From NCBI GenBank assembly GCA_963751455.1, contig CAVVUN010000005.1, forward strand, positions 1-61,881: a stretch of DNA of 61,881 nt, given 5' to 3'. Numbering within the stretch: the first letter of the stretch is position 1; every line of letters begins with the position of its first letter. The translations under genes and the position numbers were made by a program. Source of the stretch: Nitrospirota bacterium (lineage in GTDB: Bacteria; Nitrospirota; UBA9217). Shown piece after piece: positions 48,164 to 60,756 of this stretch. The notes below the pieces were generated by a model, which was not told the origin of the DNA, did no database searches, and was given only the letters and a program-made list of their open reading frames with translations.

Positions 48164-48505
48164 ATGCTTTGGGTTTACGGCATAATAGGCAAAAAAATAT
48201 ACGACCAGCGAAAGGCCTCAGGAAAAAGCCAAGAAGAATTGGGGAAGATTCTAGATCTTACCAGGACTTCAATCGCAAATTTCGAAGCAGGCACGCAGGC
48301 AGTTTCAATAAGTGACCTTTATAAAATTGCCTTATTTTTTAACAAAGACATAAATGACTTTTTACCAACTACCGACGAGGTCAAAAATTTACAAAAAAAG
48401 CCAGAAGAAAAGGTAATAGAAGATGGTTCTTTGGATGAGACAACAAGATCTGAGCTATCTGCATTTCTTCAAAGGATAAAAGAAGAGAAGAGTAAAAATA
48501 GTTAG
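48164..48505 (+). CDS. XRE/Cro-C1 HTH transcriptional regulator
   Basis: IGKKI...RK..GKSQEELG..L.LTRTSIANFEAG.Q. Confidence 0.9.
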   Translation: MLWVYGIIGKKIYDQRKASGKSQEELGKILDLTRTSIANFEAGTQAVSISDLYKIALFFNKDINDFLPTTDEVKNLQKKPEEKVIEDGSLDETTRSELSAFLQRIKEEKSKNS

Positions 48506-48518
48506 GAAAGGAGCAAAT

Positions 48519-49016
48519 ATGCGCGGCTCAAGTTCAGCCAAAAGGCAAGCTAGAAGAATTAGAGCTAAGCTGGAGAGCAATCAGAGAGATATAGACATTA
48601 AGCAGGTAGCAGAATCACAGGGTATTCGAGTTTATGAAGAGGATTTTAGTGGCGATACTATCTCCGGACTTATGCTGAGAGATGAAAAGGGTTACATTAT
48701 TGCCGTAAATAAGGGACACGCAGATACTAGAAAGAGATTTACAATTGCTCATGAGCTCGGCCACTTCTTATTACATAAACAAGAAAACTTGCACTATGAT
48801 CTTCAGCAGAATGGTAAAGAAGTTTTCTTTAGAGCTGATGGCATCATAAGCTCTCATGAAAGAGAAGCTAACCATTTTGCTGCCGAACTTCTCATGCCAG
48901 AAGATATGATTCGTGAAGACTTCCAGGATAATCCAGACATAAACAAGTTAGCTAACATATATAAAGTAAGTGAATCAGCGATGATGTATAGACTATCTAA
49001 TTTGAACCTTGTGTAG
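48519..49016 (+). CDS. ImmA/IrrE family Zn metallopeptidase
   Basis: RKRFTIAHELGH and EREANHFAAELLMP. Confidence 0.93.
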   Translation: MRGSSSAKRQARRIRAKLESNQRDIDIKQVAESQGIRVYEEDFSGDTISGLMLRDEKGYIIAVNKGHADTRKRFTIAHELGHFLLHKQENLHYDLQQNGKEVFFRADGIISSHEREANHFAAELLMPEDMIREDFQDNPDINKLANIYKVSESAMMYRLSNLNLV

Positions 49017-49843: not shown

Positions 49844-50206
49844 TTATGCATTCTCCTCGATGATATGTTTCCCTTTTTCGGTCAGCCGGTATTTCTGTAG
49901 ACGGCTGTTTGGCTTGTCCGGAATGGTATATTCAACCAGTTCTTGGGTAAGCAACTCACCCACAGTTTTTTTCAAAACTCCGGTCTTGCTTCTCAGCCCC
50001 AGGGTATTCACCAATTCGTTCATGGAAAGCGGTCCTTGCCGCAGGGCGCGCATGATTTGATTCGACTGGGCCTCTGACCGGGCTCCCTGCTCGACTTGAA
50101 CAACTGCTTCAGAAACGGCTTTACGCCAAAGCGTCAGGATGAAATATCCGGAATCTATACGGAACTCGGGCTGCCGTATGCCTGCGGTCCGGCAGCGTTC
50201 GAGCAT
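49844..50206 (-). pseudogene. C-terminal fragment of a RecG-C/Fic-associated winged-helix protein
   Basis: 'EYTIPDKPNSRLQKYRLTEKG' terminal motif; N-terminal domains are absent. Confidence 0.6.
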
Positions 50207-50220
50207 ATCGACAGTTCACC

Positions 50221-51416
50221 TCAGCGAGCGACCCATTCCGCCGCCGGAGTAGCAGGAACTTTTCCAGGGGGATGCCGTCTTCGCCGACCAACAGTTTTCT
50301 CTTCGGCTTGAAGGCTTTTTCAAAGGCGTCCGTCCCCGGAAGCCCCTCCTTGAGAGCTCCGCTCTTGATCTCAATGGCGACAACGGTCTTGCCGGATGTT
50401 AGGACGAAATCCACCTCCCGGCTTCTTTCGCGCCAATAAAAAATCTCGACGCCCATTCCCGCGGCGCTATTGATCAGATGGGCGCCGACCGCCGATTCCA
50501 CCAGCCTGCCCCAAGTCTCCCGGTCCTCCCGGGCTTCATCGAAGGCGAGCCGCGCTTGCGCGCTGATGAGCGCCGTGTTCAATACCTGAAGCTTGGGGCT
50601 CGACGCCCGCTCGCGGACCCGATGCGCGGCGAACTTGTGCAGGCCGGTCAGCATGCCGGCGCCGGCAAGCAGCTCCAGGTAGTGGCCAGGGTCGTCGTAT
50701 TGCCGGCGTCCTGGAGCTGCCCGATCATCTTCTGATAAGAAAGGATCTGGCCGGAAAATGAGCAGCCCAGTTGAAAAAGACGCCTGAGCAGCGCGGGTTT
50801 GTCAACCCGTGTCAGGAGCAGAATGTCGCGGGAAAGAGTCGTCTCGATGAGCGAATCGATTATGTAGCGCGACCAGCGCTGCCGGTCGGCGATCAGGTCC
50901 GCCGCTCCGGGATAGCGCGCCGAAATAGATGAAACGGTCAAGGTCCCACCCGAAGGCTTCACGCATCTCGGCGTAGGACCAGTGGACCACGGGAATGGTC
51001 TCGAACCTGCCTGCAAGGCTTTCGGTCAGCCCCCGCTGAATGAGGAGCGGCGCCGAACCCAGGAGAACGACCTTGAGGGATATTTTTCTGCGGGTATCGC
51101 TGTCCCAGAGCCTTTTTACCACGTCTGACCATCCGGTCACCTTCTGGACCTCGTCCAGAACAAGGAGCGCCTCGCCCTTGCCCGCGGTCTCCGCTGCCAG
51201 CGACCTTCCCGTTTCCCACTGCTGTTCGATCCATGCCCGGCTCTGAAGGGTTGGTTCATCCGCTGAGGCATAATGGACCGGGACCCGGGTCTCGTCAGCC
51301 ATCTGGCGCACCATCGTGGTCTTCCCCGTTTGCCTCGGCCCCGCGAGGACCTGGATGAACCGGCGCGGCTCCTGCACTCTCTTCACCAGCGTATGATACA
51401 TGGGGCGATGATACAT
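50221..51416 (-). pseudogene. AAA+ ATPase with DUF4143 domain, three frameshifts
   Basis: GPRQTGKTT, LDEVQK, ESLAGRF, (GGYP), GRLVESAVG and EVDFV..IEIKS. Frame breaks near 50917, 50684 and 50251. Confidence 0.82.
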
Positions 51417-51487
51417 CCCTGTCCGATCCTCCAGAATGAACGAAACCGACCACCTTACAAATTACTCAATACGTTGAGTTATTTTAC

Positions 51488-51727
51488 TCACAACATTACG
51501 CAATGTAAAGCACGGGCTTCCAACATACCCGCGAGTTTCAGGCAAGAAGCGATGCGACTCTGTTTGAATGAGTTTCGGCAACAATGGGGTTCAACATTCT
51601 CCGCTTGCAATCTGACAAATTCAGATTCGTCTTTCTTGGTTAAAATGATAAGATCCTTAAGCTCTTCCTTGGCCAGCGTCGATGAATTGTCCACGAAACC
51701 GTCAATGTAATCCGTGAACTTGCTCAT
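51488..51727 (-). pseudogene. Probably truncated hypothetical protein
   Basis: AGGAG RBS and a plausible helical N-terminus; the C-terminus looks like non-coding read-through. Confidence 0.35.
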
Positions 51728-51738
51728 GGAGGCTCCTG

Positions 51739-52272
51739 TTATTTATCTTTGTTTTTCAAGTTTTCAGTCGCTATGGCAATATCGAAGGCCTGCCCGAGAA
51801 CTCTTGCCGCCTCGTTAAAATATTTTGGACCAAGTGTCCCGTTCCCATTTGCCCGGTATTCCGCTATGTCTTCGTCCAGCAATTTCCGGATCTTATCAAA
51901 CTGCTCCATTGTTTTACTGTTTGCGATACCTTTCCCTTTTTCGTACTCGTACGCTTTGCGAAATTTCAGCGTGATGTCAGCTATAGCTGTCTCATTCTCG
52001 GTAAAGGACTTTGTATCAAATGTCTCAACAAGCATCATGGCTTCGGCTTTAAGATCAGTCAGGTTTCTATAAGTAGTAACGTCGTGGTAGGTAATGGGGA
52101 TGGCACAACTTATCAGCCACGTGCTCAAGGGCAACGTGACAACGAGCGAGAAAATATAACGCGGTAAAGGATTATGGATTTGTGCCAAGTGACGCTGATT
52201 CCGTAAGGGGATACTCTTTTTCTGGATGGATTCTAAATCAACCATAATCCTCCATGAGTGATTTGGATGCAA
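51739..52272 (-). CDS. Hypothetical lipoprotein
   Basis: Hydrophobic stretch ending LISC followed by a helical domain. Start uncertain. Confidence 0.6.
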   Translation of the reverse strand: MHPNHSWRIMVDLESIQKKSIPLRNQRHLAQIHNPLPRYIFSLVVTLPLSTWLISCAIPITYHDVTTYRNLTDLKAEAMMLVETFDTKSFTENETAIADITLKFRKAYEYEKGKGIANSKTMEQFDKIRKLLDEDIAEYRANGNGTLGPKYFNEAARVLGQAFDIAIATENLKNKDK

Positions 52273-52338
52273 ATAGTTGAATTAATGAAAAGATTACTAC
52301 AAAGGGTTTCAAGTCCAGAAAAGAGAGACGGGGTGAGA

Positions 52339-52797
52339 TTAAGCAACTGAATCAGAATTACAACGCGAAATGTGGAGGTTTCGAGGAGATACGACCACCG
52401 CAAGTTTCAGGAAGAAATTAATGCTCTTCTCAAATTTTGTCGGGTGTTCGTCTCCTGCCTGTTTCTCTCGGTAATACTGTGTTTGGATCATTTGCTTGGC
52501 GATCGGAAGACGATTTTTGATTGTGCTCCAGACGAGATTATAATCGACTCCAAAGTAACCGTGAATCAACCGATCTCTCATTCCGGACATTTCTCTCCAG
52601 GGAACGTCCGGATACCGCTGTTTGACCGTATCAGGAATATTTCTTGATGCCTCACCGATGATCTCAAATTTCCTTATCACGGCGCTTGCTGTTTTATCGT
52701 CCTGCTGGAAATCGTCAAAGGACATCCTCTCAATAAAACGCTCAATGCTCTCGATCGCAGCCAGAACATCGGCAAGGTAGAGTTTATGATCTCTCAT
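52339..52797 (-). CDS. hepT: HepT/DUF86 HEPN ribonuclease toxin
   Basis: EIIGEA, PW..M.GMRDRLIHGYF (RX4H). Confidence 0.9.
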   Translation of the reverse strand: MRDHKLYLADVLAAIESIERFIERMSFDDFQQDDKTASAVIRKFEIIGEASRNIPDTVKQRYPDVPWREMSGMRDRLIHGYFGVDYNLVWSTIKNRLPIAKQMIQTQYYREKQAGDEHPTKFEKSINFFLKLAVVVSPRNLHISRCNSDSVA

Positions 52798-53084
52798 GCA
52801 GGAACTACCTCTTTCAGTACTGTATCTCTGATCTCCTTCCTCAAGGCTCTCTTCGGGACAACGTCAACCTTCGACCCGAGCTGCTCCTCGAGAAATAATC
52901 CCAGACCGACGAGATCGAAAAGATCTGCATCTTCTTCGAAATCGACAAGGACATCGATATCGCTTGACTGCTTCTGTTCGCCTCTCACGACAGATCCGAA
53001 AACGCCGATCTCGTGCACCTTGTACTTCTTCATCTCATTATGCAAATTTTTTATGATTTTAATTATGTCTTCTTTGTTTTTCAT
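52794..53084 (-). CDS. mntA: MntA-type minimal nucleotidyltransferase antitoxin
   Basis: GVFGSVVRGE...SDIDVLV...KVDVV, with an ATGA overlap onto hepT. Confidence 0.9.
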   Translation of the reverse strand: MKNKEDIIKIIKNLHNEMKKYKVHEIGVFGSVVRGEQKQSSDIDVLVDFEEDADLFDLVGLGLFLEEQLGSKVDVVPKRALRKEIRDTVLKEVVPA

Positions 53085-53437
53085 AGGAAGCTTCAATAAG
53101 GAACTCGTCAATCGTCTTTAATACAATTTTATACAAATCTTACGTCAAAATCAATCGCCACCATGCGGCTGCCAGGATTTCTCCTCCTGATGAGTCGAGA
53201 ATAACGCATTTTGAAGGAAGGGGCAAGGGAAATTGTGTAGCCGATGGGGTGACAGTGAGACGACAGAGAAGCGAGTGAGAGTCGACGAGAGACAGCCCGA
53301 GCGACAGAGAGGCGAGGAGGCAGCCGCGCTGATCCGAGCTTTGGATGCATCTATTACGGAATCTTCGCTCTCCTTATCACCCTTATAATAAATCTCGATA
53401 AACTCTATTTTGTCCTCTTCCTCGTGACTAGGCGTAG

Positions 53438-53609
53438 ATGAAGGCCAAGCCCGGAGACGCCCTGACTCTTACCAAAAAGATCGGCACCCGCGGTCGCCTA
53501 TGGCTGTGACCTGAACAGGAAGGCCGGGAAAGTAGCGAACGTGGAACAAATCAACGAAATATTTTGCAGACAGTCAGGCGAGTACCTGATCACTGCTTGG
53601 CCTGTTCAT
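53438..53609. ncRNA. Putative structured non-coding RNA (long rod with central bubble)
   Basis: Nested pairings ATGAAGGCCAAGC/GCTTGGCCtgTTCAT and CGCCCTGACT/AGTCAGGCG enclose A-rich unpaired flanks and an inner stem-loop. No credible ORF. Confidence 0.45.
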
Positions 53610-54110
53610 TCAGAAAACAGAATTATTGACACTTTATCATAAAGATTGACTAACAATTGACAGGTGGTGTATTCATTTTATTACATTTTATTACACATTC
53701 ATATTCTCATTAACATTGTAAGTTGCTAATTTCGCATATAACTTATTCGTATTTTCCTTTTTCGGCTCCTGGGAACAATTATTGCTTATATCATAATATT
53801 GACATCACGGTAATCTGCGTATTCAATTGCATTCATCAGATCTCGCTGCGTTACGGCACGACCGGCACAGTCCATCAAAAACCGCTTTGCACCGGAGGCA
53901 CTGGAGAGTTGAGAACTATGGTCGACTGTTTGGAGACAAGCGATCAAGAGGAAACATGGGGCAATTGGTTGTCAGCAAGGAGGGGTTTTATATGTTCAAG
54001 GACGTGAGCCTCGGTGGAAATGATTATACCGCCTAGCCGTGAGAGGGATCAAGAAAAATACAAGTTCAATTCGCCTGAGTTGAAATAATAAAAAAAGGAG
54101 AAACGACGAA

Positions 54111-55115
54111 ATGGGAAAAGAGAAAAGATCTTTAAAAAATATGAACCGCCGTCAATTCTTGAAAACGAGCGCGGTTGGATGCGCCGCTCTCGGCCTGAGC
54201 ACTCTTGGATTTCCTTCAATAGCTATTTCAAAAACTACGATGAAGGTGGGGTATATCCCGATTCTCGATCATTTTGCCATGCTGATGTCCCACGCAAGGG
54301 ACAATAGTTCATTCAAGGCCATAGATATAGAGCCGATGCTGTTCAAGTCATGGGACGCGCTTTCCGGCGCGCTCAAGGCGAACGTGATCGGCGGAGCCAT
54401 GATCCTGTCGAACTTTGCAATGGATCTGTTCAACAATGGCCTGGATATCAGGTCGGTCGCGATAGGCCACCGGCACGGCTCCGGCTTAACCGTCAGGGCC
54501 GACTCTTCGATAAAATCGGCGGCGGACCTCAAGGGAAAGACCATCGCGGTTCCGTACAGGGTATCCACCCATGCGGTCATTCTCGATAAATATCTCAAAA
54601 GCGCGGGGCTGTCCCTGAAAGACGTAACCGTTATGGCAGTCCCGCCCCCGAATATGCCCGAGTCGCTGAAGAGCGGCAGCATCGACGCCTATCTCGGTCC
54701 GGAGCCTACCGGCGAGAGGGCGGTACAGGCGGGAACCGGGAAGATACTGAAACTTTCCAAAGACATAATGCCCAACCACATTTGCTGCATCGCGGTCGCT
54801 CACAAACAGCAACTGACGTCCAACCCCGAGGGGATCCGGGAATGGGTGCACAGCATGCAGCGGAGCGGCAAGTTCATCGATGCGGACAAGGCCAAAGGTT
54901 CGCAGGAAGTCGCGACACTGGCGCAGAAGTATGTGCAGATCGACCCGCGTGTGATCGTCAATGTAATGCAGCAGCCTTCGAACCGTATTATATACAGCGA
55001 CCTCGCGCCCAAACTGGCGGATTATCAAACGATCCACGATATGTCGGTGTCCGCCGGCTTGATCCAGAAGACGGACCTGAAGACTTTCGTGGATGAAAGC
55101 TTCGCCAAGGGCTGA
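54111..55115 (+). CDS. Tat-exported NrtA/CmpA/CynA/SsuA-family substrate-binding protein
   Basis: NRRQFLK twin-arginine signal, VGYIPILDH, DLKGKTIAVP..STH, PEP and PNHICC. Confidence 0.88.
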   Translation: MGKEKRSLKNMNRRQFLKTSAVGCAALGLSTLGFPSIAISKTTMKVGYIPILDHFAMLMSHARDNSSFKAIDIEPMLFKSWDALSGALKANVIGGAMILSNFAMDLFNNGLDIRSVAIGHRHGSGLTVRADSSIKSAADLKGKTIAVPYRVSTHAVILDKYLKSAGLSLKDVTVMAVPPPNMPESLKSGSIDAYLGPEPTGERAVQAGTGKILKLSKDIMPNHICCIAVAHKQQLTSNPEGIREWVHSMQRSGKFIDADKAKGSQEVATLAQKYVQIDPRVIVNVMQQPSNRIIYSDLAPKLADYQTIHDMSVSAGLIQKTDLKTFVDESFAKG

Positions 55116-55407
55116 TATGCCTGCTCAAACTCCGCAGATTCGCGGTAAACCAGATTCGATAAAGTCGTAAAAAGGCGGATTTAACCACAGAGGCACGGAG
55201 GTCACAGAGAAAAAACACTTTATTTTATTATTTTTTTTCCTCCGTGTCTCTGTGTCTCCGTGGTGGATTTTGATTTTTAAGAATGCATCAGATTTGACTC
55301 ATGGATTTTTTAAAACTGCGCAATCTGCGGACAAACGTTTTTTCCGCAAAAGGTTTTCGTTTCGGGGCTGTCGAATAATCACGAGCTGACAAGAAAGGCT
55401 CTCCATT

Positions 55408-57066
55408 ATGAAAATAAAATCCAAATTGCTGTTGAATGCCGTGATATCGATAACCTGCCTGCTTTTCGCGGGCGGGATAGGGTTTTTTTTCACTAACAGC
55501 GTTGCAAATATCGCGCTGTCGATTGTGAAAGCCGAGGCTATTCCCCTGGTCAAGGTCGGTGAGATCGAGAAGACCCTTTCGGAAGTTCTGCGATATCTGA
55601 TCATACATTCCGCCTTGACCGACCCGGAGGGAGTCAAGAAGGTGGGACAGGTCATCGGTGAAATGACGGATAAGCTCGGCAAGGAAATAGCGGGTTATGA
55701 AGAAATGACGCGGAATGCCGGGTCCTCGGAGGTTTCGGAGCGCATGGCAACGTTTAAGAAAGAGTGGGCCTCTTTCAGCGGGCTCAAGGCAGAAGCCCTG
55801 AGGTTGAGCGACGCATTTGCAAAAGAAGACGCCCTTAGACTCCTGACGTCGACGGGAAGGGAGTCTTGCGACAGGATGCTGGAAACTCTTCATCAAATCG
55901 GCTTGTACCATCAGGAGAGCATGAACCAGGCCGTCGAGCGATCAACTGCCTCAAAGAGAAATGCCGTACTCTGGATCGTACTGCTGACTTTGTTGCTGGG
56001 AACCTCCGTCATCGTCGGGGGGATAATGATCAGCCGCTCGATCATCGTGCCTATCGGCGGGGAGCCCGCGCATATCGCGGAAATCGCCCGGAAGATTTCC
56101 GACGGTGACCTGTCCGTCATGTTTGCGGCGGAGGGAAAGAATGAAACAGGCATCTACTCCGCTATGAAGACAATGGCCGAGAAGCTTCGTCAGGTCGTTG
56201 TCGACGTCAAGAACGCGGCGGACAACGTGGCTTCGGGAAGCCAGCAACTCAGCGAAGGCACGGAGCAGATGTCCCAGGGCACTACCGAGCAGGCGGCGTC
56301 GGCCGAGGAAGCATCGTCCTCCATCGAGGAGATGAACTCCACTATCAGGCAGAATGCGGACAACGCCTTACAGACCGAGAAGATCGCCTTGAAGTCGGCG
56401 GCTGACGCACAGGAGAGCGGAAAGGCGGTAACCGAGGCGGTGGCCGCCATGAAAGACATCGCGACCAGGATCTCAATCATCGGAGAGATCGCCCGGCAGA
56501 CAAACCTGCTTGCACTGAACGCCGCCATCGAGGCGGCCCGGGCGGGTGAGCACGGCAAGGGATTCGCAGTGGTCGCGGCGGAAGTCCGGAAGCTCGCGGA
56601 ACGGAGCCAGACAGCGGCCGCTGAAATAAGCCAGCTCTCCACGTCCAGCGTGGAGGTGGCCGAGCGTGCCGGCCAGTTGCTCTCAAAGCTCGTGCCGGAC
56701 ATCCAGAAGACCGCTGAACTGGTGCAGGAGATCAGCGCCGCGAGCAAGGAGCAGACCTCCGGGGCCGACCAGATCAACGCTTCCATACAGCAGCTGAATC
56801 ACGTGATCCAGCAGAACGCGGGGGCCGCCGAGGAGATGTCGTCCACCGCCGAGGAACTGGCTTCGCAGGCCGGGCAGCTTCAGGGCGCGGTAGCATTCTT
56901 CAAGGTAAGCGACGCGGCTGTTCAGGCTTCGCATAAAATAAATATCGCGCATCTCGCTAAACCGAGGATTGCGGCGACGGTTAATCGTCCGGTCGTGGCT
57001 ATCAATATGGGGCATGAAGTCAAAGGCAAGGCTGATCACTGCGATCACGAGTTTGAGAAATTTTAG
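55408..57066 (+). CDS. Methyl-accepting chemotaxis protein (4HB-type sensor)
   Basis: TM-periplasmic helical domain-TM, IGGEP, and [38 protein letters not shown]-terminal pentapeptide EFEKF. Confidence 0.96.
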
Positions 57067-57214
57067 AGACAGAGGACAGACAGCAGACAACAGCATGCTG
57101 TCAGCTGCTGTTTTTGCGTAAACACTCTAAGTATAGGAGGTGATGATCACAGCGCTTTATAAATGAATTTTTTTTCAAAAAATGTACTAAATTATAATAA
57201 TAAATGGAGGTGTT

Positions 57215-57778
57215 ATGAAGAAGACGTTACTGACAGTTTCGACAATTATCGTTGCAGGCCTTTGTTACTTTTCACCGGCACAAGCTACTGATAACACCAG
57301 TGTAGTAGATTCGCTTGCGCTTGATAGTTACGAGCAGCGCAAGCCGACATTGGATTTGGCAAATAAGGCGGCTATTAAAAAGGGGTTAACCCTGGAAGCC
57401 ATGGGTAAGGCCTGCAGCCTCCTGCCCGTCCGGGTTGGAGCAATCCTCACCGGCCAGGCTCCTTTAGAAAAACCTACGCAGGATTGCCTTGAAAAAGAAC
57501 TTGAGTTGAAAACCGGCTCTTTGGCCCCCTTGGCCCCACCCCCGGTACGTTGGCAAACCGGCGCTATTTATCGCATACATGAGGCGACAGAGGTGTATGG
57601 ACCGGCAATTCAGCGCTGGATGAATGAGCGGTTTGGCGATGCGATCATGTCAGCTATCGACTTCGATGTAATCGTCGAAGAGACCAAGGGCTCGCATGGT
57701 GAACGCCGCATTCGTATCATTTTCGATGGTAAGGCGCTGCCCTATTCGAAAGACGAGGGATGGAAGCCGGCCCCGTGA
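57215..57778 (+). CDS. cynS: Cyanate lyase (cyanase) homolog with an N-terminal Sec signal peptide
   Basis: IYRIHE..EVYG..I...NERFGDAIMSAIDF...IIFDGKALPY matches the CynS catalytic domain. The N-terminus is MKK-hydrophobic-AQA. Confidence 0.85.
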   Translation: MKKTLLTVSTIIVAGLCYFSPAQATDNTSVVDSLALDSYEQRKPTLDLANKAAIKKGLTLEAMGKACSLLPVRVGAILTGQAPLEKPTQDCLEKELELKTGSLAPLAPPPVRWQTGAIYRIHEATEVYGPAIQRWMNERFGDAIMSAIDFDVIVEETKGSHGERRIRIIFDGKALPYSKDEGWKPAP

Positions 57779-57877
57779 TTATTCGGGCGCCAATTCCCGT
57801 CCATGTCCCCTAAGTTGCGACTGAGGGGTTGACATCTTGCGGGACGTAAGCTCCCCAGCATAAAAAACTAGTTAATA

Positions 57878-57913
57878 AAAAAGGCTTGCAGGTTATAACC
57901 TGCAAGCCTTTTT
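57878..57913. terminator. Bidirectional rho-independent terminator
   Basis: Perfect 36-bp palindrome AAAAAGGCTTGCAGGTTA/TAACCTGCAAGCCTTTTT. Confidence 0.85.
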
Positions 57914-58174
57914 CTGCTTTTATGAAAATTATTTCATCTTATCTGAACGAATTCACCTTTTGTGAAAGCCTGCATCGATTTATACTTTCAGCGCGATAAA
58001 TTCAATCGCTTTCTATACGACGCACATTGCACGCATTTATCCAAGTGAAAATTCTCTGTATTAGTTAATTTGATGTCAATCGTTTTGAATTCATCTTTCC
58101 GGTTTAATATTCACAGCTTATGCTATAATAAGCAACTTGTTTTGAAAGATAGTTTTAATTCGAGGGAGCAGGCG

Positions 58175-58873
58175 ATGAAAAAAGTTTTGATCGCGAGGGA
58201 ATTGGACGAGATATTGCGCAGACACGACAGTTTCTTGAACCGGGTGGGCATTCATTTGCTGACGGCCTCGTCTAACGACGAGTTGCTTGAGATCCATCGG
58301 GCAGAACGCGCCGACCTCATTATCACCCGGATCGATCTGCCGGGCACAGGCATCGAGCAGGTCGCTTCAAGCATCAGAGAAGACAAGGAACTGCAGCGGG
58401 TCCGGTTGCTCATTGTATGTTCGAATACGCGGAGCGATATCGAAATGTGTTCCCGCTGCGCTCCGCACGCCGTGGTTCTTCAACCGGTGAATCATCTTGT
58501 CCTGTCGGCGAGAGCGCTGCAGCTGCTCGATATTGCCTGGAGAGAGAACTACCGTGAAATCATCAATATCGCTGTTCGGGGTAATGCCGGAAATGAAAAT
58601 TTCCTGTGCAGCTCTCGCGATATCAGCATATCGGGCATGCTTATTGAAACAGAGAAGATGCTCAGGGTCGGCGACAGGATAATCTGTTCCTTCTCTCTTC
58701 CGGATTCGAAACGGATTAATGCGGCCGGCCGGATCGTCAGGCTTGTGACCGGAATTCAGGGGAAGGTTTTGAATCAGTACGGGGTGAAATTCCTGCAGAT
58801 GTCTTCTGAAGAACGAAAGAACCTTGAGTCATTCATGAATGACACTTCGCTGTTCTCTGACAGGCAGTCCTGA
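58175..58873 (+). CDS. Atypical receiver + PilZ domain protein
   Basis: Receiver-like N-terminus lacking the canonical Asp; PilZ motifs RENYR and DISISG. Confidence 0.8.
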   Translation: MKKVLIARELDEILRRHDSFLNRVGIHLLTASSNDELLEIHRAERADLIITRIDLPGTGIEQVASSIREDKELQRVRLLIVCSNTRSDIEMCSRCAPHAVVLQPVNHLVLSARALQLLDIAWRENYREIINIAVRGNAGNENFLCSSRDISISGMLIETEKMLRVGDRIICSFSLPDSKRINAAGRIVRLVTGIQGKVLNQYGVKFLQMSSEERKNLESFMNDTSLFSDRQS

Positions 58874-58899: not shown

Positions 58900-60756
58900 T
58901 CACATGATGACTCCGTCCGCAATCTCTGTGTTGATGCGGTGAATCCACTGAATGACGCGGCCCGTTGCTTCTTCATTCAGGTCTTCAAAACAAATGCCGA
59001 GATGATAGACCGTATTCTGCTTTCTGGCATGGTTTACCCTGGCCTTGACCTTGATCTCGCCCAGTACCGAGAGGTTCAAAGTAATAGTAAGCTTCGAGCC
59101 GATGGCAAGGGGTGAATTTACCTCGAGAAGACATCCGAACGGGCTGATGTTTTTGACGATCGCGGTGCTTGTTTCATCCGAATAACCTTCAAGCGAATAA
59201 GCGAACACCAGATCGGTGGCCTTTCGCATGTACCGCCTGGTCCCGCCTTTGACCTCCACGACCTCAGCGACCAGGAGCGGCTTGTCCTTTCCTTTCACCT
59301 GCACAGCGGGTAATTCGTTCCAGACAGCCTGGTCGCCGATTTCGTCCGCAACCGTCCTGGTTACCAGAACCTGCCCCGCTTTTGCAATTCCGCACAGACG
59401 CGCGGCTATGTTGATATTGTCGCCGATGACCGTGTAATCCATCTGGTCTTCAGAACCCATGTTGCCCATGACAACGTCGCCGCTGTTTAATCCTATCCCG
59501 ATGTGTATCTGTTTCTGGCCGGAGGCCGAGCGGGCAAAGTTCAAGGATTTGCAGTAGCTTTGTATCTCGACTGCCGCTCGAACCGCGTTGATTTCCTTGC
59601 CCTTCCCCTCAAAGATAGCCATCACCTCGTCCCCGACGAATTTGTCGACGGTGCCGCCCCAGTGGTGAACCACGGCTGTCTGCATGTTCAAGTAGATATT
59701 CAGCAGGCTTACGACCTCCTCGGGGCTCATCTTCTCCGAAAGGGACGTGAAACCGCGCGCGTCCGAGAACAGCGCAGTTACGTATTTCCGCTCTCCTCCC
59801 AGCTTCAGCTCGGAAATATCGCGGTTCTCTCTAATGCAGCGCACCGTTGACTGGGAGAGGTATTTCTCCATGTGTATCTTTTCGCGAAGACTGAGAATCA
59901 TCTGGTTGAATACGTTCGTAAGGTTGCCTATTTCGTCGCCTGAAGTGACCGCGACAAGGGTCCGAAGGTCTCCCGCCGCCACGGCATGGATGCCCTCTGA
60001 AAGCAGATCCAGCGGCTTCGTAATAAGGCGGGCCAGCGCAAAAGCTAACACCAGTCCTACAATGACAAAGCCGAGCGCAATCAAAAAATAGGTGATTTTC
60101 TGCTGCCGTATGGATTGGTTCAATGTCTTGAGCGAAAGTCCTATCCGCGCTACCCCGACCTTGATATTTTTGGCTTTCAGGATGATGGGGACAGATGCGT
60201 CCAGAACGGGATCGTTATTGAATTTGATTTCCTGGAACAACAGGTCCTTTGCCTTTAATACCGCCTGATCTTCGGCCCCTTTCAGAACGGTGCCGTTCTT
60301 CGAAAAGTCGCTGTGAACGAACACTTTCCCTTCGTCGTCCATGACCATTGCATAAACGATATCGTCGCGCTTTTGAATGTCCGTAATAGTGGAAATGACG
60401 GGCAATTCCTGCTTCATCAACAATGCTTCCTTGCCGACGTTCGCCAGCTGCTGAACAATAACCGAGGCGCGGCTTTTCATTTCATACCGGAGCATTGTTG
60501 TCTGTCTTGCGAAGGTTACGATACCGAGGGACAGGACCGCCAGGCAGAGGATGATCACGAGCGTACCCGCGATTTTATACCGGACGCTGACAGAGGAGAG
60601 GAATTCCAGGAATTTGGAAATGAAGGAAGGTGTAGCGTTTGCCTGCTTTACAGCGGCAACATCAACGACTTTTTCAGGTATGTCCTTGCTTTGTTCCGTA
60701 AAGGGTGGAACGACAGGGTCAGGTTCATTCCCGTCATGCACCGGATCATCGCTCAT
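58900..60756 (-). CDS. Membrane class III adenylate cyclase with HAMP and C-terminal PilZ
   Basis: Two TMs and a HAMP domain, then FSDARGFT, DKFVGDEVMA and YTVIGDNINIAARL. PilZ motifs RRYMR and NISPFG. Confidence 0.9.
   Translation of the reverse strand: MSDDPVHDGNEPDPVVPPFTEQSKDIPEKVVDVAAVKQANATPSFISKFLEFLSSVSVRYKIAGTLVIILCLAVLSLGIVTFARQTTMLRYEMKSRASVIVQQLANVGKEALLMKQELPVISTITDIQKRDDIVYAMVMDDEGKVFVHSDFSKNGTVLKGAEDQAVLKAKDLLFQEIKFNNDPVLDASVPIILKAKNIKVGVARIGLSLKTLNQSIRQQKITYFLIALGFVIVGLVLAFALARLITKPLDLLSEGIHAVAAGDLRTLVAVTSGDEIGNLTNVFNQMILSLREKIHMEKYLSQSTVRCIRENRDISELKLGGERKYVTALFSDARGFTSLSEKMSPEEVVSLLNIYLNMQTAVVHHWGGTVDKFVGDEVMAIFEGKGKEINAVRAAVEIQSYCKSLNFARSASGQKQIHIGIGLNSGDVVMGNMGSEDQMDYTVIGDNINIAARLCGIAKAGQVLVTRTVADEIGDQAVWNELPAVQVKGKDKPLLVAEVVEVKGGTRRYMRKATDLVFAYSLEGYSDETSTAIVKNISPFGCLLEVNSPLAIGSKLTITLNLSVLGEIKVKARVNHARKQNTVYHLGICFEDLNEEATGRVIQWIHRINTEIADGVIM

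Follow-up and report, generated by a model that had tools for sequence, protein, structure and literature searches.

A rare, leader-bearing clade of cyanase-family proteins, predicted to be exported, in Nitrospirota and other bacteria

The cyanase-family gene and its surroundings

The window analysed here, a stretch of 61,881 nucleotides from a Nitrospirota bacterium, carries three consecutive forward-strand genes for a substrate-binding protein, a methyl-accepting chemoreceptor and a 187-residue protein of the cyanase family (Table 1). The N-terminus of the latter reads MKKTLLTVSTIIVAGLCYFSPAQA, as in the first-pass annotation, which had also considered that the true start might lie downstream of the signal. 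The ribosome-binding site fits the annotated ATG and no alternative in-frame ATG, GTG or TTG occurs in the first 40 codons, so that a mis-called start is excluded and the leader lies inside the open reading frame; the next possible start is a TTG (Leu46), the use of which would delete Ala35 and Arg42, both invariant in a 56-row family alignment. The protein passed the gathering score of Pfam Cyanate_lyase (PF02560; 75.2 bits, cut-off 25) and stayed below the cut-offs of Pfam CYNS_N (15.1, cut-off 27.1), the NCBIfam cynS equivalog TIGR00673 (66 bits, cut-off 113.3) and PRK02866 (79.8, cut-off 150). Sequence comparison with the PDB gave 14 matches, each of them a cyanase (5uk3 according to its entry title, the other 13 by name), with identities to the solved enzymes of ~30-33%, and the top Foldseek matches are cyanases followed by XRE-type helix-turn-helix proteins; a helical, HTH-like N-terminal domain is supported by the structural model (pLDDT 81, helices at residues 30-95). 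By these scores and matches the protein is a member of the cyanase superfamily outside the cynS equivalog. Its earlier description as CynS-like is thus borne out by the Cyanate_lyase score and the solved cyanases retrieved, and the YRxxE and SAI(D/N)F motifs claimed for it were found as YRIHE (119-123) and SAIDF (146-150), aligned without gaps to the E. coli-type Arg96, Glu99 and Ser122.

Table 1. Features of the locus, in window coordinates
Feature	Position	Strand	Basis
Tat-signal NMT1-like substrate-binding protein, no adjoining permease/ATPase	54111..55115	+	
Methyl-accepting chemoreceptor, four-helix-bundle sensor domain, between binding protein and cyanase	55408..57066	+	
GGAGGT ribosome-binding site 5' of cyanase ATG	57206..57211	+	
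Cyanase-family gene, 187 aa, leader-bearing clade member	57215..57778	+	profile, alignment and tree
Predicted Sec/SPI signal peptide, residues 1-24, cleavage after AQA	57215..57286	+	family alignment
Cys67, invariant in 121/121 family sequences, predicted disulfide partner	57413..57415	+	
Cys91, invariant in leader-bearing members, four losses on leaderless branches	57485..57487	+	
Shortened loop WQTGAI in place of longer [DE]P-containing loop	57551..57568	+	
Arg120 to Glu123 (equivalents of E. coli Arg96/Glu99)	57572..57583	+	
Ser146-Ala147 (equivalents of E. coli Ser122; Thermomyces Ser127/Ala128)	57650..57655	+	
Terminator-like hairpin, 16 pairs, 3' of cyanase gene	57878..57913	+	

A CynABD-type layout is absent from the locus, no permease or ATPase gene lying beside that of the binding protein, and the best match to a CynB query in the own genome reaches 28% identity. 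This genome, rated 100% complete, contains no other cyanase that we could find; searches of it for an FNT-family protein, a close CynB or a urease were likewise negative, and it has two amt genes, glnA and a dsrAB locus, whose dsrA is broken up between two reading frames, possibly through an assembly error (G000:C2:327037-328180). Its sole beta-carbonic anhydrase match is unlinked to the locus and carries a signal-like leader (G000:C9:269739-270447; L075:1441-2148, minus strand); if truly leader-bearing, such an enzyme would parallel the cytoplasmic cynT/cynS pair. The binding protein shares 40% identity over 125 residues, and an H-x-C-C motif, with the one encoded in a cyn cluster of Nitrospiraceae. 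Its best solved match is S. aureus 3un6, which also has Cys-Cys; since the motif is thus partly present in an unrelated solved protein, it does not settle the ligand. A single-sequence structure model of the binding protein was discarded (pLDDT 36).

An Rfam scan of positions 53000-58200 returned no riboswitch or known RNA at gathering score. A sigma-54-like element lies 341 nt before the binding-protein gene, with an 11/14 match to the consensus that 36 of 2000 random stretches equalled or bettered, and it is not conserved in five relatives. The ~300 nt preceding that gene (53790-54110) are near-identical in two related loci (L002, L068) and not in three others (L003, L064, L067), while a TTCAATTCG motif just 5' of its ribosome-binding site is kept in all six loci and has no Rfam match. 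The spacer between the binding-protein gene and the chemoreceptor gene holds a long, imperfect inverted repeat (55178-55270), for which Rfam gave sub-threshold hairpin matches only. After the chemoreceptor gene a second hairpin with a T run (57067-57115) is followed by an AT-rich stretch with sigma-70-like sites, which suggests that the cyanase gene may also be transcribed alone. One RNA sequencing run contained 7% of the words searched for and contigs of relatives that cover all three genes, many of the matches being generic chemoreceptor sequence; one contig of 873 nt extends from the end of the chemoreceptor gene over most of the cyanase gene, and the mutS control gave short, poor matches only. 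These data come from a single study and consist of contigs without strand or level, and we give them no weight as evidence of expression. The flanks of the three-gene cassette differ between genomes. In the window they comprise an XRE regulator and IrrE-type peptidase pair (48164-49016), followed by a split ATPase-like gene and two small open reading frames (50121-53111), the last two of which we take to resemble a nucleotidyltransferase/HEPN toxin-antitoxin pair, and, downstream, a receiver-PilZ protein gene (58070-58873, plus strand) facing that of an adenylate/guanylate cyclase that contains Cache and HAMP domains and, at its C-terminus, a PilZ domain (58900-60756, minus strand).

Clade, leader and cysteine pair

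A word search gave 155 matches, the best 120 of the 155 at 63-93% identity; the closest named relatives are Nitrospirota MAGs (87-90%), and several NCBI records call clade members 'hypothetical protein'. When a profile built from 56 clade sequences was run against 1.84 billion cluster representatives, one full-length clade member scored 337 bits. Among full-length proteins it was followed at 152 bits by a clade member with a frameshift and by a cyanase with two domains, and then by scores of less than 100. Matches at 70-100% identity occur in six of 401 genomes of the phylum; all others lie at 34-47%, and those of the latter that were extracted are leaderless and 144-152 residues long. A pattern scan of 185,579 species genomes, which can miss clade members, returned 26 loci, of which 25 belong to the clade; a canonical cyanase from Mycobacterium (L027) was left out of all locus counts. 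Carriers are mostly Nitrospirota, together with Nostoc, Fortiea, Thiomargarita, Massilia, a Brocadiaceae MAG and a deltaproteobacterium. In two quick maximum-likelihood trees all 58 clade rows group on a single long branch, with SH-aLRT support of 100 for the full sequences and 97 once the leaders are removed, a result that answers in the affirmative the question, raised with the first annotation, whether signal-bearing homologs form a clade. A recent duplication of the adjoining cynS was ruled out by ~35% identity and separate branches. Among the 25 carrier genomes the clade gene is the sole cyanase match in 10, and a further cyanase-domain match exists in 15. As judged from alignments and trees, we consider the clade a real, rare and conserved leader-bearing branch of the cyanase superfamily.

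Other leader-bearing bacterial cyanases lie outside the clade, namely P0170 (with P0318-P0320), P0206/P0321 and P0202/P0322; the first has two tandem cyanase domains and a cluster member from Ca. Hypogeohydataceae (class Brocadiia). Since these groups occupy two further regions of the tree, export may have arisen several times. One leaderless clade member labelled Klebsiella pneumoniae (P0129, on a 494-nt contig) is probably a mis-binned fragment.

The leader of the query combines a KK n-region, the hydrophobic stretch LLTVSTIIVAGL and AQA at -3/-1, the features of a Sec/SPI signal. Across the family it is at least 18 residues long in 106 of 121 sequences, 6-17 residues in five (four resembling truncated signals and one polar) and essentially missing in ten. 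A hydrophobic core is found in all 106 full leaders, with Ala at -1 in 104, Ala or Val at -3 in 105 and a basic n-region in 97. Leaders are, by median, 30% identical to that of the query and mature parts 73%, and sequence that drifts while its properties are conserved is a hallmark of functional signal peptides. A custom signal rule is passed by 46 of 47 leader-bearing rows and by none of 10 leaderless rows or 14 canonical cyanases, though it is lax, 442 of 2110 open reading frames of the own genome passing as well; it stops at the first fit, residue 22, while the family alignment favours cleavage at 24. The classical SPI signal of the first-pass annotation thus stands as a predicted signal conserved through most of the family, and export of the clade protein appears very probable.

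Leaderless members are genuine at four loci, where a purine-rich ribosome-binding site directly precedes the Met and the frame upstream of it encodes no hydrophobic stretch, observations on which we rejected the 165-residue forms as annotation errors; a fifth leaderless locus is L016. These forms start at the predicted mature N-terminus. They emerge at two separate places within the clade in both trees, so that the leader is most simply ancestral. Two leaderless genes (L060:5001-5498 and L061:5001-5498) directly follow narGHJI, and others form a tandem pair after an FNT-family transporter gene (L059:2929-4038).

The two cysteines of Table 1 behave differently on these branches. Both are kept in all 106 full-leader sequences; Cys67 is unchanged in leaderless rows too, and Cys91 is lost in 5 of 11 sequences with no leader or a polar one, as well as in L016. 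Among 36 columns that do not vary across 48 leader-bearing rows, 35 are unchanged in 10 leaderless rows and Cys91 alone changes, four times, on branches that make up 14% of the clade tree length; the leader losses behind this pattern are two independent events, too few for a sign test. Decay of Cys91 only where the leader is missing is what would be expected of a periplasmic Cys67-Cys91 disulfide, a bond we infer from the alignment. A DsbB or VKOR match was found in 10 of 25 carrier genomes, many of them incomplete MAGs; none was found in the own genome, where two DSBA-family matches were the only hits. The even-cysteine bias among predicted exported proteins of the own genome is weak (0.51 vs 0.45) and lends the disulfide no support. 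At query position 109, seven of ten leaderless sequences gained a Cys, leader-bearing ones having mostly Pro.

Active site, predicted assembly and gene context

Arg120, Glu123 and Ser146 are kept in 121 of 121 family sequences and Ala147 is invariant in the 56-row alignment. In other cyanases mutation of the Arg, Glu or Ser abolished or reduced activity (PMC7801690; PMC3070753, as far as the latter was available to us). The accessible part of PMC7801690 describes Arg101, Ser127 and Ala128 of the Thermomyces enzyme as ligand-binding, with Glu104 holding the Arg, and the equivalents of all four are invariant in the clade alignment. Numbered from the predicted mature start (57287-57775), the catalytic residues become 96, 99 and 122, as in E. 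coli; residues gained at the N-terminus make up for those lost from a loop, and the match is probably a coincidence. This loop, which precedes the catalytic helix, is ~6-7 residues shorter than in most cyanases, and an [DE]P two residues before YRxxE, an empirical feature counted in this analysis and not drawn from the literature, occurs in 122 of 124 non-clade cyanase matches versus none of 120 clade members. Cyanases form decamers of intertwined dimers. A four-copy structure model is compatible with self-assembly and scored 0.52 (best control 0.00), above a threshold that 20 of 30 solved pairs and 1 of 23 single chains also passed, in a job unlike the calibration, so that the pass may stem from likeness to solved cyanases. 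Contacts agreed by at least 63% between runs, with partner pLDDT of at least 74, and the C-terminal strands are paired between copies in a predicted intertwined dimer.

Upstream of the clade gene, eight of the 25 genome loci have a leaderless cyanase, as a gene or as a fragment; cynB/cynD-type ABC genes occur in six, amt is directly downstream in six, with two further contigs ending right after the clade gene, and glnA is upstream in four, the amt- and cyn-linked loci being from related Nitrospiraceae and not independent. The fullest order is glnA, sigma-54 activator, cynABD, cynS, clade gene, amt. At 12 of the 25 loci the queries used detected no neighbour related to cyanate or ammonium transport, and no glnA. 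This context ties the clade, on the evidence of gene order, to nitrogen and cyanate metabolism. The cassette seen in the window is complete at L002, L003, L064/L065, L067 and L068 and cut at L004 and L062, and it was found in three genera of the host's bacterial family. Its binding protein is encoded in 3 of 64 genomes of that family, each time beside the clade gene, and in a fourth carrier of the family the contig ends inside the chemoreceptor gene.

Proposed role and comparison with known cyanate systems

Taken together, these findings are best explained by a divergent, Sec-exported cyanase that would release ammonium in the periplasm, a reading to which we assign a probability of roughly two in three; given export, turnover of cyanate would be likely. 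The clade protein would be exported unfolded by Sec, cut after Ala24 and assembled into the cyanase oligomer in the periplasm. There, cyanate that had crossed the outer membrane would react with bicarbonate to yield ammonium and CO2. The ammonium could then be taken up by Amt and fed to glutamine synthetase, so that a toxic compound would be removed and its nitrogen harvested without a cyanate importer. In the host the orphan binding protein and the chemoreceptor may sense the same or a related anion, which we offer as a weaker suggestion. The exported cyanase proposed in the first-pass annotation thereby gains support as a prediction, from the signal-bearing clade, the upstream start and the nitrogen- and cyanate-related gene context. 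It is tempting to speculate further on a second, extracytoplasmic route of cyanate use, in which a disulfide-stabilised periplasmic cyanase supplies ammonium to Amt or to neighbours and, in the host, acts as the sink of a cyanate-sensing chemotaxis module, export having been invented at least three times, as the other leader-bearing cyanases outside the clade would suggest; this broader picture we regard as tentative.

The repurposed enzyme envisaged earlier keeps some standing, the clade having lost a loop motif that nearly all other cyanases possess. An exported enzyme with a cyanase active site might thus act mainly on another small C1-N or C1-S anion, the short loop having changed access or specificity. 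The absence of [DE]P from 120 of 120 members and the long stem branch would fit such a shift, as would the leaderless members found after narGHJI at two loci, and in the 15 of 25 carriers with a further cyanase-domain match the exported copy could diverge freely. We nonetheless find it unlikely, since all four ligand-contacting residues named in the part of PMC7801690 available to us are invariant, the gene sits directly behind a canonical cynS and cynABD-type genes in several Nitrospiraceae, and no other cyanase was found in the own genome or in 10 of 25 carriers. Conservation of the catalytic residues need not imply turnover, because in the portion of PMC3070753 at hand they are reported also to stabilise the decamer. 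An exported, non-catalytic oligomer that binds an anion and buffers it or presents it to the binding protein and chemoreceptor would suit the cassette shared by three genera, but the cassette is confined to one subgroup, the gene elsewhere accompanies amt and glnA, and the same residues are kept in leaderless, cytoplasmic members; of the readings weighed here we judge this the least probable.

Only slightly less improbable is that nothing is released into the periplasm, the leader serving as an uncleaved anchor or being bypassed, with the enzyme in or on the cytoplasmic side. Viable leaderless members exist, no known disulfide-forming oxidase was found in the own genome and cyanases are presented as cytoplasmic in the text consulted of PMC12342949. 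Against this, a conserved A-x-A lies directly before a conserved mature N-terminus and an internal start is absent, and the leaderless forms, which begin where the mature protein is predicted to, are the only ones to lose Cys91.

An exported cyanase would, if confirmed, break the rule that these enzymes are cytoplasmic and dependent on importers. Neither CynABD nor NirC would then be required for using or detoxifying cyanate, and neighbouring ammonia oxidisers could draw on ammonium set free beyond the inner membrane. The clade is rare, yet present in cultured cyanobacteria, among them Nostoc sp. FACHB-190 and Fortiea sp. LEGE XX443, the latter with no second cyanase found; as several NCBI records name its proteins 'hypothetical protein' and the query misses the cynS cut-off, surveys can overlook it.

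Our literature search, which did not extend to subscription journals, found no description of a periplasmic, secreted or extracellular cyanase in the partial texts it returned, and no account of what the loop shortened in the clade does. In the sections available to us, PMC12342949 states that cyanases are cytoplasmic and distinguishes two types in Nitrospirota, PMC12625717 delimits two cyanase clades without the words 'periplasm' or 'signal peptide', and PMC7078480, PMC11104535 and PMC6504805 do not mention an exported cyanase; likewise, the Trichinella cyanase is reported to have no signal peptide in the portion of PMC9079694 consulted, and the word 'signal' is absent from 12 of the 14 supplements of PMC8776842. 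A bioRxiv preprint, of which part was accessible, presents a tree of 8,358 CynS sequences from GTDB that may include this clade.

Canonical CynS, as solved from E. coli (1dw9), Serratia (4y42/6tv0), Pseudomonas (7o74) and Thermomyces (6xgt), shares with the clade the two-domain layout, the C-terminal Cyanate_lyase domain and the Arg/Glu/Ser/Ala active site. The canonical enzyme is leaderless, whereas the clade protein has a conserved, signal-type leader of 24 residues, an extra N-terminal helix, Cys67 and Cys91, a short loop without [DE]P and a C-terminal extension that ends in an invariant Trp. Closer to the host, from the same phylum, are the Nitrospirales CynS types that accompany CynABD or NirC (Kop et al. 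2025, PMC12342949, in the part accessible to us). These proteins are leaderless, 144-152 residues long and ~35% identical to the clade protein, which branches in the tree apart from both Nitrospira-type and L026-type CynS; a canonical cynS of the Nitrospirales type lies directly upstream of the clade gene in several carriers. The upstream neighbour in the window shares the NMT1_2 domain with binding proteins of the CynA/NrtA/CmpA type and, unlike them, is a 334-residue protein without a permease or ATPase alongside. Finally, the periplasmic thiocyanate dehydrogenase, a protein unrelated to the clade cyanase, belongs to a pathway in which, according to the text available of PMC6504805, cyanate is formed by a periplasmic enzyme, and cyanate from this source would supply an exported cyanase.
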